Source: an uncultured delta proteobacterium (lineage in GTDB: Bacteria; Desulfobacterota; Syntrophorhabdia; Syntrophorhabdales; WCHB1-27). Taken from it: a stretch of DNA of 64,000 nt. Made by a program: the position numbers and the translations under genes. The stretch covers positions 640,001-704,000 of the forward strand of contig CAWEPK010000008.1 of NCBI GenBank assembly GCA_963810935.1, in the 5' to 3' direction. The notes below the pieces were generated by a model, which saw only the letters and a program-made list of their open reading frames with translations, did not search any database and was not told where the DNA came from. Shown here piece after piece: positions 6,790 through 53,848 of the stretch; position 1 is the first letter of the stretch; each line of letters opens with the position of its first letter.

Positions 6790-9063
6790 TTGTTCGTAGC
6801 CGCAGTCCTCGCCTTTTGCGGAGGCATCTACCTGGAGGCGCTTTACGGCGCACGCCTGGCGCTCATTCTTACGGCCGCCATTATATCGATGGCGATCCTG
6901 CCGTTTGCGCTAAAATCCGCTAAGATATTCGCCCTCCTGCTCCTGGCCGGCTTCATGTTCTGCGGCGGAGCGCGGCTCGCCTTTATCGACGCACGACAAG
7001 GGGCGCCTGACGAGAACGGAGACAAACAGGTCTACGAGGGCACTGTTGTGGAAAGCTCTTCCCGCCTCAAGGTGCTCGCCCTTACCGGTCCCGACCGCCT
7101 GGCAGGGATGCGCGTAGTATTTTTCTCCGGCGTCGACCTCCCCCTCTCCCAGAACGTCAGGGTTTTCGGGACGATCAGGGCCATCGTGCCCGGTTTTCAA
7201 AACCCCGGCAGCCTCTCCTGGAAATGGGTAAAGCGGTTCGAAGGGATCTCTTACGAAGTTAAAGGCAACCTGCTCTCATCGGCGCCGGGCAGGGACCCCG
7301 TTGCATCGCTCCGGCGCTACTTCAAGGAAAACATAGAGAGATCGGGAGCGCAGAGCACCGAAATACTCAAGGCGCTGACCATAGGCGACAGGACCGCCGT
7401 CACAACTGCGCAGAATGAATTATTCCTCCACACGGGCACGTCGCATATCCTCGCCATCTCGGGCTTCAATGTAGGCATCATATCGGGATTTTTCTTTTTC
7501 CTCGCAAGGGCGGGCTTCCGGCTGATAAGACGCTTCCGCATGTCCGGGAGGGACCGGAGATATGCCGCCCTAATCACGATACCCTTCCCCTTCGTTTTCA
7601 TGCTCGTGGCAGGCGCCGGTGTTTCCGTGATCCGGGCGGCGATCATGATCGCAGTCTTCATGCTCGCCGTCTTCATGGAGCGCGAAAAGGACTTTTACAA
7701 TACCGCGGCCCTGGCTGCCCTCGTCATTCTGCTCGTTTACCCCCATTCGCTCATGACGCCCTCCTTCCAGCTTACCTTCCTGAGCCTTCTCTTTATCGTT
7801 ATGGTCATGCGAAGGCTTATGCCGTTCCTGGTCCGTATAAAGAACAGGGTCGCCCTCTGGTCCCTCTCGACCGTCCTATCTACGGCGGCCGCCACGCTCG
7901 GCACGGCCCCGATAGTGCTCTACTATTTTTATGGGATCAACCCATTCTCCATACTGCACAACCTCGTGACGGTACCGCTCATGGGCGTTTGCGCCACCGT
8001 GCTCGGCCTCGTCGGCATGATTACGCCATACGGATGGCCCCTGCTCCTTCCGGCAGGGAAGATCGCCGGGATAAACCTTGCCCTGCTTCACCGGCTCGAT
8101 TTCGGATACCTTTACCCGCTTATAAGACCCACGCTTTCGGAGATGGCCCTTTATTACGCGATCCTCATCGCCCTCATCCATCTGCATAAACGGTTCGTGC
8201 CCGCTCTCCTTCTCTGCGTCCTGGTCCCCCTATCGGCCCTCCAGGCTTACGCGGACTATCGGGAGCGGTTCAACACCGACCTCGGCATCTTCTTTATCGA
8301 CGTAGGCCAGGGGAATGCAGCGCTGATAGAAGGACCGGGGGGCTTCAGGGCCTTAGTCGACGGCGGCGGCTTCCCCGATTCCGATTTCGATATGGGCAGG
8401 CAGGTGATAACACCCTTTCTGCTTTACCGGAAGATACGGACCGTCGATTACGTCATCAATACGCACCCGCACGCGGACCACATAGGCGGACTTGCGTACG
8501 TGATGCGCAATTTCAATGTCTCCCGGCTCGTCGCGGGCGGCCTTTATCCCCTGGAGCGGAAATCGCGCGATCTGATCGAGGCCGCTCGTTCCAGGGGAGT
8601 GCAGTGCCTTGTATGGAAAAAGGGAGACGCCATAACGACCGGCGCTTTTACGATAGACGTGCTCCATCCGGACGGCCCCGTCTTATGGGACGACCCGAAT
8701 AACAGCGCCCTGGTGCTGAAAATCCGTTACGGGCAGACCTCGTTCCTGCTGCCCGCAGATATAGGAAGCGACGTGGAGAAATGGATGGTGGCGTCCGGCC
8801 TCCCCTTAAGGTCCGACGTCCTGGAGGTCCCGCATCACGGCAGCGCCAATTCGAGCAGCTTTGCGTTCATTGCCGCAGTCAGGCCGACGCTCGCAGTAGT
8901 CAGCGCCCGCCCCGGCCGGATACTCCGCCTGCCGAGCCCTGCGGCGCTCAGCCGGTACAAGGCCCTTTCGATACCCGTCTTGCAGACGGACATGCAGGGC
9001 TGCGTCGAGGTCCGTACCGACGGCCGCCGCATCACGTGGCGGACGTACGGGGAGAAATGGTAA
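6790..9063 (+). CDS. comEC: DNA internalization competence protein ComEC/Rec2
   Basis: 'HILAISGFNVG', 'SFQLTF', metallo-beta-lactamase domain 'IDVGQG', 'THPHADHIGG', 'NNSALVL', 'PHHGS'. Confidence 0.93.
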   Translation: MFVAAVLAFCGGIYLEALYGARLALILTAAIISMAILPFALKSAKIFALLLLAGFMFCGGARLAFIDARQGAPDENGDKQVYEGTVVESSSRLKVLALTGPDRLAGMRVVFFSGVDLPLSQNVRVFGTIRAIVPGFQNPGSLSWKWVKRFEGISYEVKGNLLSSAPGRDPVASLRRYFKENIERSGAQSTEILKALTIGDRTAVTTAQNELFLHTGTSHILAISGFNVGIISGFFFFLARAGFRLIRRFRMSGRDRRYAALITIPFPFVFMLVAGAGVSVIRAAIMIAVFMLAVFMEREKDFYNTAALAALVILLVYPHSLMTPSFQLTFLSLLFIVMVMRRLMPFLVRIKNRVALWSLSTVLSTAAATLGTAPIVLYYFYGINPFSILHNLVTVPLMGVCATVLGLVGMITPYGWPLLLPAGKIAGINLALLHRLDFGYLYPLIRPTLSEMALYYAILIALIHLHKRFVPALLLCVLVPLSALQAYADYRERFNTDLGIFFIDVGQGNAALIEGPGGFRALVDGGGFPDSDFDMGRQVITPFLLYRKIRTVDYVINTHPHADHIGGLAYVMRNFNVSRLVAGGLYPLERKSRDLIEAARSRGVQCLVWKKGDAITTGAFTIDVLHPDGPVLWDDPNNSALVLKIRYGQTSFLLPADIGSDVEKWMVASGLPLRSDVLEVPHHGSANSSSFAFIAAVRPTLAVVSARPGRILRLPSPAALSRYKALSIPVLQTDMQGCVEVRTDGRRITWRTYGEKW

Positions 9064-20080: not shown

Positions 20081-21039
20081 ATGAGGCGATATTATCTCGA
20101 TTTCGAGAAGAAGCTGGAACCGCTGGAACGCAGGATAGAAGAGGTAAGGAAGTTCCACGATGCCAAGGACCCGCACTACGCAAGGGATCTAGACCAGCTT
20201 GAGAAGCGGATACTGAAGGCGGAGCAGGAGATATACAGCAACCTGAGCAATTGGCAGCGGTGCCAGCTTTCCCGCCATCTGAACCGGCCCCACATGCTCG
20301 ACTACATAGGCAAACTGTTCACGGATTTCGTAGAGCTCCACGGAGACAGGAGATTTAGGGACGACCCGGCTGTCGTGGCAGGGTTTGCCCGCTTTAACGG
20401 CACGGCCGTAGCTGTGGTTGGACACCAGAAAGGCAACAACGTCGGCGAGATGGCGGAGCGCAATTTCGGTATGGCCAACCCTGAAGGTTACCGGAAATCG
20501 ATGCGGATCATGGAGCTTGCCGAACGATGGCGCAAGCCGCTTCTGACCTTCATCGACACACCCGGCGCCTTCCCCGGCGTAGGGGCCGAGGAACGGGGCC
20601 AGGCCGAAACCATCGCCGCGAGCATCGAGTTTATGTTCTCCCTCTCCGTCCCTGTGATATCGGTTGTGACTGGGGAAGGCGGCAGCGGCGGGGCGCTTGC
20701 GATCGGCGTGGGCAACAGGATCCTCATGATGGAGAACGCGATTTATGCGGTCATCTCACCCGAAGGCTGCGCCGCGATCCTCTGGAGAGACGGCTCCAAG
20801 GGCCCGCTTGCGGCGGACGTGCTCAAGCCGACCGCCCAGGACTTATTTTCACTAGGGTAATAGATGAAATAATACCGGAGCCTTTCGGGGGCGCTCACAG
20901 GGACTGGGAAGCGACTTTCCAGACTGCGGCCGCCGTCATCGAAAGACACCTTCGGGAGCTGCTCGCAATCCCCGGCGAAGAACTCAGGAAACAGCGCTAC
21001 ACCAAATTCAGGAACATGGGGATATTCGAAGAAAGGTAA
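20081..21039 (+). CDS. accA: Acetyl-CoA carboxylase carboxyltransferase alpha; apparent frameshift near 20855
   Basis: 'YLDFEK', 'ELHGDR', 'IDTPGAFPGVGAEERGQ', 'GEGGSGGALA'; C-terminus 'VIDEIIPEPFGGAHRD' in another frame. Confidence 0.95.
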
Positions 21040-21042
21040 CGG

Positions 21043-21114
21043 CAATTATTGGGGCTCCCGTCGCCCCCTCATGAAAAGGAAGAGGCATTTTTGCATTATT
21101 GGGGCTCGCGTCGC
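21043..21114 (+). repeat. Dispersed repeat, copy B (internally deleted) plus a tandem partial copy forming the dsrT 3' end
   Basis: attattggggctcccgtcgccccctcatgaaaaggaagaggcatttt, then attattggggctcgcgtcgc. Confidence 0.75.
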
Positions 21115-21641
21115 TCGCCGCCGCCGACCGCTGCAAGCAGACGCGCAAGTCTCTCCTTTTCGGCCTTCACCTCGTTTATCCTGACCCTCGTGATCTGCTC
21201 TTTGAATTCCATGTAAAGGTCGAACGCCTCCATCATCGCCTCGTCGAGCCTGGCTTCAATCACGCGAAGGGCGCCGGAATCCTCCGCCGATGCGGACCCG
21301 TCCGGCAGCTCTCTGCGGATTTCATCCTTCAAGAGGGGAATAAACGAAAGGGCCTTCGATGGAGGGACGTCCTGCACGGCCAGGATGCGTACGGCATCCC
21401 TCATGGATTCTTTTGTCTCCTTCCCCTCGCGGCCTCCATCGAAAAGATCATTCAGGAGGCGATCTAATGCCTCCGTAAGCGTATGGCCGACGGGGTTCTG
21501 AAAGCGGTCCTGCCCAGCCGACGCCGGCGCACAACTCCACGCCGGACAAACGGCCGCGAAGGCAGCGAGACACCGTTCCCGTATCACCCTGCCCCTCTTG
21601 CGCAGCACCTCTTTCAGCACAACAGCCTCAGCCCCTACCAC
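21096..21641 (-). CDS. dsrT: DsrT (RsbRD N-terminal domain) protein
   Basis: 'DRFQNPVGHT', 'RILAVQDVPPSKALSFI', 'AFDLYMEFKEQI...RINEVK'; located downstream of dsrB. Confidence 0.8.
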   Translation of the reverse strand: MVGAEAVVLKEVLRKRGRVIRERCLAAFAAVCPAWSCAPASAGQDRFQNPVGHTLTEALDRLLNDLFDGGREGKETKESMRDAVRILAVQDVPPSKALSFIPLLKDEIRRELPDGSASAEDSGALRVIEARLDEAMMEAFDLYMEFKEQITRVRINEVKAEKERLARLLAAVGGGERREPQ

Positions 21642-21697
21642 TTAAACTGCGTAGTAGTCCTATAAGTCTCCACCGCGTGTGTAAAGTCGGCAATCAT
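21635..21697 (-). pseudogene. Second, diverged 3' end of dsrB (reads [20 protein letters not shown])
   Basis: 21635-21688 encodes the same 17 residues plus stop as 22426-22479, with 6 synonymous differences. Confidence 0.9.
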
Positions 21698-22340
21698 CTA
21701 CCCCCGGCAAAGCCGGGGGTTTGTTAAAACCGTGAACCGCTCAAAGCGGTTAGTTGTGCGTTAGCTGCCTAAAGGCAGCTATTTGTCCTTCTCAAACAGT
21801 TTCATCTGGTCGAGCCTTCGATCTGTCTCTTCCTGGGCTTGGATGTACGCTCGTATGGCTTGCTCGTCCAACCCTATGGTCGATACGCAATAACCTCTGG
21901 CCCAAAAGCTCTGACCTACGAAGTTGCGTCTCCTGCCGCTCATCCGGGCTATGTAGATCGCGCTCTTCCCTTTGATAAAGCCTACCACCTGGGCAACGGC
22001 ATACTTTGGGGGAACCGAGAGCAACACGTGGACGTGGTCCACTACCAGTTTCCCCTCCAGCACCTCGCTCTCCTTCTGTCGCGCCACTCCTTGATGATGG
22101 GCCCTATCTCCTTCCTGAGCTTTCCGTAGAGCACCTTTTTCCGGTACTTCGGAATCCACACCACATGATACTTGCAATCCCATACCGTATGACATAAGCT
22201 CTGAATATCTTCCACCGAAAGCCTCCTTAACTCTGCCGACCGCCTAAACGGTTCACGGATACAGGAGGCTTTCCTATATATTCCCGGAATTGTCAAACTC
22301 CGGGATTCCCCCGGCAGAGCCGGGGGTTTACCAGAATGAA
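21695..22340 (-). mobile_element. IS200/IS605-family element carrying tnpA only; ends approximate
   Basis: Subterminal hairpins cccccggcaaagccggggg (21701-21719) and cccccggcagagccggggg (22308-22326); inverted ccgtgaaccg motifs near both ends; Y1 transposase gene between. Confidence 0.88.
21779..22215 (-). CDS. tnpA: IS200-type Y1 HUH transposase; apparent frameshift near 22088
   Basis: 'CKYHVVWIPKYRKK', HUH 'DHVHVL', 'IKGKS', 'FWARGY', 'IRAYIQAQ'. Confidence 0.92.
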
Positions 22341-22421
22341 ATTACCGGGGCTATCGTCGCCCCCTCCAGCGGCGAAGCCGCCGGAGCCACCCCCTCATAA
22401 AAAGGAAGAAAGTGCATCATT
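22341..22421 (+). repeat. Dispersed repeat, copy C, directly after the dsrB stop
   Basis: ggggctatcgtcgccccctcca-gcggcgaagccgc-cggagccaccccctcataaaaaggaagaaagtgcat. Confidence 0.8.
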
Positions 22422-22425
22422 CCCC

Positions 22426-23490
22426 CTACCACTTAAACTGCGTGGTAGTCCTGTAAGTCTCCACTGCATGGGTGAAGTCGTCTATGTGCTGCTCGGTGAA
22501 GGGTATCTCGGTCCTTTTGAAGAAGGCCTCCCAGCCTATCCTCTCGATCCACTCGCCCAGTCTCTCGGTCGGCCTGGCGGATGATGCATAGACATCGACT
22601 ATCCTCTTGAGGACGTCCACTACCTCGGGCCACCTGGGAGGGTTATTGGGCAGGTAGGGGACTACCATGCGGGAGAACATCGGGGGCTTTCTGGCATTGG
22701 GCACCTTGCCCCCTGCGTAAATGGCGACACCGTCCGTATCCCCGTCGGCAAGCGGCATGGCCGGGCAGACGGTAAAGCAGTTGGCGCAGTACATGCAGAG
22801 GTCCTCGCGGACAACCACGCTCTTTACGTCAGCATCCGGGTGCCTTCTTATCGCCCCTGTGGGACAGGACTGTATGGTTGTAGGTATCTCGCACTGGGCG
22901 AGCACCCTCTCATGGTCGGGCCGGGGGGGCTTCGTATGTACGCCCACTATGGCAAGGTCGGAGCAGTGGACCGCACCGCACATGTTGATGCAGCAGGCAA
23001 GGGATATCCTTAAGTGGTTCGGGAGCTTCATCTCGGTGAACTGGTCGTAGAAGGCGTCCATGACGGCTTTTACTATGCCTGATGCGTCGGTTGCCGCGCT
23101 GTGGCAGTGGATCCACCCCTGGGTGTGGACTATGTTAGAGATGCACTTGCCCGTCCCGCCTATGGGGAGGCCTAGCTTATGGAGGTCTGCTATGATAGGC
23201 TCCACCTTTGCCTTGTCCGGGGTCATGAACTCTATGTTGTGGCGGCTGGTGAACCGAAGATGGCCGTTGCAGTGCTTATCGGCCACATCGCAGAGGTCCC
23301 TTATGAAGTCTATAGAGACGAGCCTGGGGGAGCCTGCACGGATGGAGTAGACCTCTTGGCCTGATTCCGAGACATGGCGGAGGACGCCCGGCTTTACGAT
23401 CTCGTGGTACTTCCATTTGCCGTAGTTGTCCTTGATCACGTCGGGGAGCATCGTTTTGAAGTCGGGGGGTCCTATATCGGTCTTTCTCAT
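22426..23490 (-). CDS. dsrB: Dissimilatory sulfite reductase beta subunit
   Basis: 'YGKWKYHE', 'FTSRHNIEF', '[17 protein letters not shown]', '[13 protein letters not shown]', '[12 protein letters not shown]', 'PNNPPRWPE'; RBS aaggag. Confidence 0.97.
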
Positions 23491-24661: not shown

Positions 24662-24772
24662 GGGGTCCTCCTGGGTAGTCGCACGATGAAGCAGCCGTTA
24701 CGGCCTATCTTGTAATTTGTATCATATCGGCTGATTTTGCACAATGCACATGAGAGGCCGGCGGTGTTACAT

Positions 24773-32191: not shown

Positions 32192-32243
32192 AGTCAAGAA
32201 TAATGTTCTGTATGTTCCAAGTCCAATTTCAATATACGGAACA
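32192..32243 (-). promoter_or_regulatory. Operator/promoter module 1 (drives iclR1-abfD)
   Basis: tgttctgtat-N20-atacggaaca inverted repeat immediately upstream of a TTGACT -35 box. Confidence 0.65.
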
Positions 32244-32322
32244 GTCATTGGGGCTCAGCGCCCCCTCCACGAACAAAGTCCGTGGAGCCTCCCTACTCGG
32301 CGCTGCGCATTCGCTTGCTTTA
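32242..32322 (+). repeat. Dispersed repeat, copy D
   Basis: cagtcattggggctcagcgccccctccacgaacaaagtccgtggagcctccc. Confidence 0.8.
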
Positions 32323-33511: not shown

Positions 33512-33720
33512 TCTCTTCCTCTTCATGAGGGGGTGGCTCCGCCGGCCGGGGCACCCGCCCGACGTAAGGAGGGAAGGGTCGCGTGGAGGTGGTGTTGAAC
33601 CCGATTACTGCCGGAGCGAGTACCGAGCGCCGGCAGTAAAAAGCGAGCGAATGCGAAGCGACGAGCAGGGAGGCTCCGTCCGGCTTTGCCGGTGGAGGGG
33701 GCGCTGAGCCCCAATAACTG
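33512..33720 (-). repeat. Dispersed repeat, copy E (one full copy plus one degenerate tandem copy)
   Basis: Minus strand cagttattggggctcagcgccccctcca-ccggcaaagccgg-acggagcctccc ... ggagccaccccctcatgaagaggaag. Confidence 0.8.
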
Positions 33721-53626: not shown

Positions 53627-53637
53627 AATCAGGAAGA

Positions 53638-53688
53638 GCGCGCCTGCCGCGAATCGAACGCGGAACCTACGGCTTAGAAGGCCGTTGC
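53638..53688 (-). repeat. Exact 51-bp duplicate of the tRNA-Arg 3' part (att-like)
   Basis: Identical to 53774-53824; covers the anticodon arm through the 3' end. Confidence 0.92.
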
Positions 53689-53689
53689 G

Positions 53690-53770
53690 GCAGTTATTGG
53701 GGCTAGCGTCGCCCCCTCCACGAGCAAAGCTCGCGGAGCCACCCCCTCATAAAAAGGAAAGTGCATTTTA
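53690..53770 (+). repeat. Dispersed repeat, copy G
   Basis: gcagttattggggctagcgtcgccccctcca-cgagcaaagctcg-cggagccaccccctcataaaaaggaaagtgcatttt. Confidence 0.85.
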
Positions 53771-53774
53771 GAAG

Positions 53775-53848
53775 CGCGCCTGCCGCGAATCGAACGCGGA
53801 ACCTACGGCTTAGAAGGCCGTTGCTCTATCCTGTTGAGCTACAGGCGC
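53775..53848 (-). tRNA. tRNA-Arg(UCU), CCA not encoded
   Basis: GCGCCTG/CAGGCGC acceptor stem, TAGCTCA..GGATAGAGC D-arm, ACGGC-CTTCTAA-GCCGT anticodon arm, GTTCGAT T-loop. Confidence 0.96.

Follow-up and report, generated by a model that had tools for sequence, protein, structure and literature searches.

A doubled dsrB 3' end around a hairpin mini-repeat in an uncultured delta proteobacterium, and how the repeat may spread with the ends of its host genes

Structure of the dsrB locus

The window analysed here is a stretch of 64,000 nucleotides (contig CAWEPK010000008.1, positions 640,001 to 704,000) from an uncultured delta proteobacterium of the order Syntrophorhabdales, known from a metagenome-assembled genome (93% complete, 7% contamination, with indel errors). 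Its dsrB gene has two 3' ends, which flank a hairpin mini-repeat and an IS200-family insertion sequence (IS). On the minus strand the order is dsrA, dsrB with its in-frame upstream tail (U), 86 nt of spacer and repeat, IS200, two bases of the repeat, the orphan downstream tail (D), a dsrT-like gene and accA (Table 1). G000 denotes the host genome and C with a number its contigs.

Both tails (21635-21688 and 22426-22479) encode the same 17 residues followed by TAG and differ at 6 of 18 codons, in each case at a synonymous third position, as a sequence-only reading of the window had stated; that the hairpin repeat and IS200 are all that lies between them was likewise confirmed. The direct repeat formed by the tails measures 63 nt (87%). 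Codons directly upstream of the orphan (ATT/ATA, GCC/GAC) belong to the repeat end and not to the copy, which thus begins at 21689. The same reading had the orphan overlap the GTG start of dsrT. The overlap (GTG at 21641) exists, but in G002, the closest relative, this GTG is out of the dsrT frame and lies 16 nt upstream of the matching GTG; by alignment, the likelier start is at 21620, 14 nt past the orphan stop. The gene itself, identified by an RsbRD_N match, is one that we take to encode DsrT. Its last codons and stop (21096-21120) are built from a repeat remnant, in G002 as well.

Table 1. Features of the dsrB locus, in window positions
Feature	Position	Strand	Evidence and remarks
dsrA, 386 aa	23501..24661	-	NIR_SIR and NIR_SIR_ferr domains; near-identical second copy on contig C10
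dsrB, 363 aa	22426..23517	-	Pfam matches; 99% amino-acid identity to G002
Tail U, in-frame, replacement copy	22426..22480	-	0 differences to the C10 paralogue tail; 5/51 to G002
Hairpin mini-repeat with short spacer, ATG-initiated open frame, TAATT end	22340..22425	-	Profile matches; two hairpins; stem pairing; IS-free copy on C10
IS200-family insertion sequence, 3' of the repeat's TAATT, terminal hairpins	21692..22339	-	Y1_Tnp; canonical ends
tnpA, approximate limits	21779..22215	-	Split Y1_Tnp matches; frameshift at 22086
Final repeat bases GC, severed by the IS	21690..21691	-	Intact C10 copy reads TAATT-GC-tail
Tail D, orphan, native dsrB end of the locus	21635..21689	-	Continuous with dsrT and accA in element-free G002; 3/51 differences to G002
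dsrT-like gene, likely start 21620	21096..21620	-	RsbRD_N (PF14361), E 2.7e-5; alignment with G002
Two truncated copies of the hairpin repeat (repeat family D2), dsrT-accA gap	21041..21120	-	Also present in G002

The 648-bp insert has the properties of the IS200/IS605 family, namely a Y1 TnpA (PF01797 matches), subterminal hairpins (z -4.5 and -3.7), insertion 3' of a fixed pentanucleotide, and no target duplication, as judged from the empty site on C10. All seven copies in the genome are preceded by TAATT and end in GATGATT. The ATG of a 20-aa open reading frame (ORF) that had been proposed to be kept as a DsrB-tail peptide or for coupling to dsrT is therefore the right end of the IS, present in 7/7 copies, and this proposal is not supported. 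Four of the seven copies occupy repeat 3' ends, although these make up only 64 of 2365 TAATT sites (p 2e-5), and the cleavage words of the IS, TAATT and TGATT, are the two commonest ends of the hairpin repeat. An IS-free state is preserved on C10, where the second dsrAB has the hairpin repeat and an orphan tail of its own behind it. IS200 arrived last, after the repeat; it is incidental to the doubling of the tail and widened the gap between the two copies. The frameshift in tnpA at 22086 is probably an assembly error, and probably so is that in accA at 20854; the extra G was seen in contigs of 4/4 and 3/4 runs, respectively.

Support for the joins was sought in contigs of sequencing runs, the three best of which come from one common study and may include the source sample. 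A short-read contig spans 22133-23009 with 0 differences and thereby covers the left end of the IS, the repeat, the in-frame tail and dsrB. For the IS-orphan junction at 21692 no bridging piece is found among the contigs listed, to which 241 further pieces would have to be added. An IS-free joint of repeat and tail occurs in one run and could derive from the C10 copy.

Origin of the two dsrB tails

G002 is syntenic and carries no hairpin repeat. Its identity to the locus is 95.1% over dsrAB and 95.2% over the 8983 bp that reach to the start of D, and D is closer to it than U (Table 1). Comparison of the dsrB-dsrT junctions, proposed earlier for finding the ancestral tail, thus shows D and dsrT to be native, with the downstream tail ancestral and dsrAB as little foreign as the genes around it. 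Over the 361 bp compared, the last 361 bp, U, spacer and repeat match the second dsrAB copy of the genome (G000 C10:306337-308428) exactly. Overall identity between the two copies is 98.8%, and one stretch within dsrB has 3-11 differences per 150 nt, which marks them as mosaics of gene conversion; this second copy is the likelier donor of U. Homology of the window to both G002 and the C10 copy stops just upstream of dsrA, at 24680, and the region upstream of it differs among all three.

Duplicated dsrB tails, for which a genome search had been suggested, were found on C10, in G001, G012 and G017, and in the independent metagenome contig L414. The tail-repeat-tail junction of the window itself recurs on C10, in L414 and twice in G001; in G012 and G017, of another genus, the junctions are shifted downstream by one and five codons. 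In the genus of the host, dsrAB is multi-copy. G001 possesses three near-identical copies (L032-L034, on its own contigs C2 and C3, two of them on one contig), one with three stacked tails, located before genes which we presume to be dsrT-, dsrC- and dsrD-like. Relatives in the family mostly carry a dsrD-like gene after dsrAB, and in three genomes of another genus (L012, L026, L037) such a gene, located after dsrB, shows a doubling of its tail around a variant repeat. A tblastn search of the host genome (93% complete) with the DsrD-like protein of G001 (E<=1e-3) gave no match.

The hairpin repeat and the duplication of gene ends

The repeat yields 162 profile matches in the host genome at E<=0.1. 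Its 3'-end pattern occurs in 20/21 other genomes of the family and in 6/19 other genomes of the order, with 0 for a reversed control. Carriage by phages found no support, the pattern having 0 exact matches in viral contigs. Including the spacer it is about 55-140 nt long, non-autonomous and protein-free; the copy of the window, with 86 nt, has only a frame of 25-30 codons. It forms two hairpins, and in the main stem 247 of 259 cells are paired across 37 distinct copies, compared to a mean of 203 and a maximum of 218 after shuffling. The 3' end is fixed (RRTAATTG, then C or T) and the 5' side variable. In the GACG subtype, an ATG-led frame is open to the 3' end in 25/45 copies (other frames, 4 and 0 of 45); in the CTGA subtype this frame contains a stop in 68/68 copies, and yet duplications occur at 10/68. 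The residues encoded by this mini-ORF vary freely among copies. An Rfam search returned nothing above threshold, the nearest family being Clostridiales-2 (21.4 bits, gathering threshold 58.6), and the literature searched describes neither this hairpin repeat nor prokaryotic tail-duplicating hairpin repeats, most subscription papers being outside its coverage.

The doubled end of dsrB is real but not specific to dsr. Of 117 repeat 3' ends in the host genome, 30 are continued without a gap by a copy of DNA that lies upstream of the repeat, compared to none of 300 random sites; roughly 6 of these 30 are tandems internal to the repeat, and some are units of one array. The corresponding counts were 42/137 in loci of relatives, chosen with a bias towards the ORF subtype, and 18/67 in metagenome contigs (80 of at least 120 matches examined). 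The general anatomy is gene with tail U and stop, spacer and repeat, tail D and stop, native flank, where D always begins at the repeat 3' end. Duplications are 11 to over 100 nt long, with the join 13-133 nt before the resident stop, and mostly comprise the last codons of same-strand genes; there are also two tRNA-like 3' ends, and tRNA 3' ends are copied almost exactly. Two cases are heads of opposite-strand genes (G000 C5:1455-1805 and C7:103940-104290), with homology stopping at the start codon in the latter. Purely intergenic duplications are rare.

From 62 candidate tail pairs, 13 were dropped by hand (repeat-internal, too short, N, indel) and 3 short-gene pairs added, giving a curated set of 52. 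Of these, 27 are identical. The remainder differ at 85 sites, 66 of them silent and 19 replacement, with 68/85 at third positions; a single pair, extended past an indel, contributes 7 of the replacements. Without the dsrB pairs the silent:replacement ratio is 52:18. For a neutral orphan beside a constrained gene, 36-48% silent differences would be expected (binomial p 2e-8 at 48%, a value overstated by kinship of the genomes). Where a pair is out of frame relative to the repeat ORF, the differences are again mainly silent in the host frame (7:2), and one orphan "replacement" change, in a tail that we assign to an acyl-CoA dehydrogenase-like gene, occurs in the working allele of G003. In 20/52 pairs the homology reaches only 1-4 nt into the stop region, and the stop codon itself is often different. 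The join follows the second base of a host codon in 34/45 distinct junctions, where about 42% would be expected from the target dinucleotides, and all dsrB cases are in frame. Such an excess suggests that continuity of translation is selected, though not necessarily a peptide.

In relatives, alleles without the element agree with D plus its flank at dsrB and at three or four other genes, and the same gene is hit with different junctions in different genomes; in L007/L009 and L118/L077 the 5' junction is common and the 3' junction different. For the hydrogenase-tail locus no orthologues were found in 5 genomes. The names dapF, infA, purH, der and acyl-CoA dehydrogenase are presumed from the sequences, not from a family search. 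A fixed length of the duplicated unit (95-233 nt, median 132; tail versus rest, rho -0.44) was considered and left unused, as duplications running past the stop can create this correlation.

Several further observations concern the repeat. In the window, extra copies of the stop-containing subtype lie at 32242-32293 and 33514-33720, with no duplication detected, and at 53628-53848 (minus strand) a tRNA-Arg(TCT) is followed by the hairpin repeat, a copy of about 50 nt of the 3' part of the tRNA, and a further repeat start. In one of the gene-head cases, at a gene that is presumably ddl-like, a new TTG start appears to come from the repeat side and overlaps the stop codon of the antisense frame of the repeat. 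In a more distant family (G029, L261:50-737), 99-nt units sharing a related hairpin core form a tandem array near an IS200.

Proposed mechanism and rival explanations

We consider it rather probable that the mini-repeat spreads together with the gene end of a donor allele, using a homology anchor on the 5' side and being joined through its fixed 3' end on the other. A donor piece consisting of gene end, spacer and repeat, from another allele or a paralogue, would pair with the resident gene via the 5'-side homology, and 1-2 nt of microhomology would serve to join the fixed 3' end at a point 13-133 nt ahead of the resident stop. The donor ending would become U and the resident ending would be displaced downstream as D, leaving the gene intact. 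Recombination and gene conversion would then spread the block among alleles and paralogues, here the dsrAB copies of C8 and C10, with D as right-hand homology arm, and the same recombination would build tandem arrays. More speculatively, the 3' end could be cut in trans by a Y1 tyrosine nuclease of the IS200/RAYT type, and in-frame joins might be favoured because the mini-ORF could then be read across D as far as the native stop, so that translation of the next gene stays coupled, an idea put forward for the MIRUs of mycobacteria.

The dsrB tails look like two functional alleles and not like a gene and its decaying copy. If both tails are drawn from a pool of functional alleles, silent differences would arise without current selection on the orphan; the earlier claim of protein-level selection on both ends accordingly probably holds for their history as alleles, while for the orphan in its present place the 3 differences from G002 are too few to judge by. 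The silent bias in the host frame, the end of homology with the coding sequence, and the new stops and spacers on the U side all fit the donor-piece model, and a ComEC-family competence gene in the window (7375-8187) is counted in its favour. It is possible, though we put it forward tentatively and would sooner expect otherwise, that these are protein-free, flank-guided homing mini-elements, in which a hairpin of about 90 nt, its 3' end set by a nuclease, uses the 5' gene as targeting arm, swaps the terminal codons for those of the donor and lets the operon be translated through its mini-ORF.

Several results weigh against the spread with donor gene ends. The 27 identical pairs, often diverging abruptly at the stop, need a same-species donor or later conversion between U and D, and 87 of 117 repeat ends have no detectable duplication. 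The repeat end runs 2 nt past TAATT, unlike a clean TnpA cut (target GA to GC in 13/44), and no intermediate was seen among the loci examined. As to an enzyme, a search of the host genome (93% complete) for reverse transcriptase found none (17/21 genomes of the family have one), and its Y1 matches comprise only IS200 TnpA, with RAYT not found. No repeat copy lies beside the 20 reverse transcriptase loci examined (one weak match, E 0.41), nor beside 30 Y1 loci, from more than 150 matches, except for the related array in one distant genome. The pairs come from related genomes and are non-independent, the loci were chosen towards one subtype, and the curation was done by hand. Ribosome-dependent mRNA cleavage, presumably RelE-like, was set aside as source of the codon-phase bias, as heads of opposite-strand genes are duplicated too.

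The most credible alternative is an ordinary insertion that duplicates a long target site of variable length, U and D being equal at birth; silent differences would arise later, as frequent recombination with element-free alleles overwrites one of the two up to the element boundary. It explains the identical pairs more simply than a donor does, a precedent for long target duplication upon insertion exists in restriction-modification genes (PMC2853133), the mosaic dsrAB copies show conversion to be active, and the near-exact copies of tRNA 3' ends agree with it. What it does not predict is that homology should end inside the stop codon, that purely intergenic duplications should be rare, or that 5' junctions should be shared where 3' junctions differ, and we hold it to be rather unlikely. 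We regard it as improbable that the orphan is translated as a fusion with the mini-ORF and kept by purifying selection as a peptide. The preferentially open frame of the GACG subtype and the excess of in-frame junctions, extending to every dsrB case, would suit such a peptide; yet out-of-frame and gene-head pairs are equally silent-biased, the residues encoded by the repeat are free to vary, the CTGA subtype duplicates in spite of its stops, a common function for the tails of unrelated proteins is hard to imagine, and the fusion of the window is interrupted by the IS.

The sequence-only reading had seen in the doubled end a possible scar of dsrAB transfer, left by a foreign allele that displaced the native one or by an integrated element comparable to prophage e14. 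The 5/51 differences of U from G002 (gene-wide 5%), the loss of homology just upstream of dsrA and the multiple dsrAB copies of the genus before different genes could be taken that way. Since identity to G002 is equal on both sides, dsrAB does not stand out as foreign; with the own second copy as the likelier donor, no integrase or cargo between the tails, and the identical anatomy at many single-copy housekeeping genes, a transfer scar or the remains of a larger, lost integrative element is very improbable. What stands of that proposal is an inserted element behind the replacement 3' end, not one of the e14 type, given that the same repeat sits at many unrelated genes and tRNA ends. An assembly chimera could be suspected from the contamination and indel errors of a metagenome-assembled genome and from the IS-orphan junction without a bridge among the contigs listed. 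Recurrence of the window's junction on C10, in G001 and in L414 makes a chimeric join of two strains unlikely, and with the canonical IS ends and the exact short-read contig we give this explanation hardly any credence.

Relation to described elements

The repeat shares traits with several known systems and fails a defining feature of each; the comparisons follow the available passages of the papers cited. WHO homing elements at yeast FBA1 are found downstream of a host gene that stays intact, and each event swaps the 3' end for that of another allele, pushing the old end downstream, with the duplicated tail as second homology arm and arrays accumulating; these elements have their own endonuclease, one target gene and fragments of about 400 bp, and act in meiosis (PMC7282813). 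Here, too, the host 3' end appears to be replaced by that of another allele, with D ancestral and displaced, U common to the paralogue, and silent differences between them; unlike WHO, the repeat is bacterial, measures about 90 nt, lacks an element-encoded allele-specific endonuclease and is found at many genes and tRNAs with tails of 13-133 nt. Prophage e14 of E. coli K-12 is a 15-kb prophage with one attachment site that separates the working icd from an orphan C-terminal fragment, icdC, with synonymous differences (PMC13626634). The flanking of an inserted element by a working gene and a synonymously differing orphan is common to both cases, whereas here the only ORF between the tails is tnpA, integrase, cargo and fixed site are missing, and junctions vary at many genes.

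MIRUs are 40-100-bp repeats with tens of copies per genome and mini-ORFs that overlap neighbouring genes and are thought to keep translational coupling; they insert at start codons with tetranucleotide direct repeats (PMC12548453, PMC3184786). Size, copy number and a putative mini-ORF (the open ATG frame of the GACG type, 25/45 copies) are alike, while the present repeat has long gene-end duplications, which the available MIRU passages do not mention, and no tetranucleotide direct repeat at start codons. REP and BIME sequences with RAYT are abundant extragenic hairpins with compensatory changes and tandem arrays, for which a Y1 nuclease and rolling-circle amplification have been proposed (PMC2817692), and REPs serve as IS targets (PMC3184786). 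All of this (a high-copy extragenic palindrome, compensatory changes, tandem arrays, IS targeting) has its counterpart here, but by eye there is no GT(A/G)G head at the hairpin foot, no inverted pair surrounds a rayt gene, and no RAYT-like gene was found in the host genome (93% complete).

Homology-facilitated illegitimate recombination with C-terminal displacement is described for T6SS/Rhs arrays (PMC5361080). There as here a homologous anchor on one side and a non-homologous joint on the other shift resident sequence downstream; their joint, according to the part of the source available, is independent of any repeat end and their cargo consists of genes, whereas here the joint is the repeat 3' end and the displaced piece a near-copy. 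Restriction-modification genes insert without the help of a transposase and leave long variable direct repeats, which may extend over tRNAs or the 3' ends of genes (PMC2853133); this resembles the present case except that theirs is kilobase gene cargo, a role of the restriction enzyme is proposed, and no common element end is described in that passage. Two other classes were considered and rejected. A miniature inverted-repeat transposable element would not fit the absence of terminal inverted repeats and of a short fixed target duplication (variable 5' side, fixed 3' end, duplications of 11 to >100 nt). For a diversity-generating retroelement, the differences are mostly C/T at third positions and not adenine-specific, and no reverse transcriptase was found in the host genome (93% complete).

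Implications

How small non-coding repeats of the REP, MIRU and ERIC types move is a long-open question. The footprint of the present repeat is unusually legible: its 3' junction is fixed, a gene end is duplicated, and close relatives offer both empty and filled alleles, which makes its mechanism testable. For work on dsr genes it brings a caution: in this genus, neither a doubled dsrB tail nor the presence of several converted dsrAB copies is in itself evidence of dsrAB transfer. If donor tails do ride along, such repeats would continually replace the C-termini and stop codons of core genes across species, and flank-guided homing, if true, would be an overlooked route of small-repeat spread and gene-end turnover.
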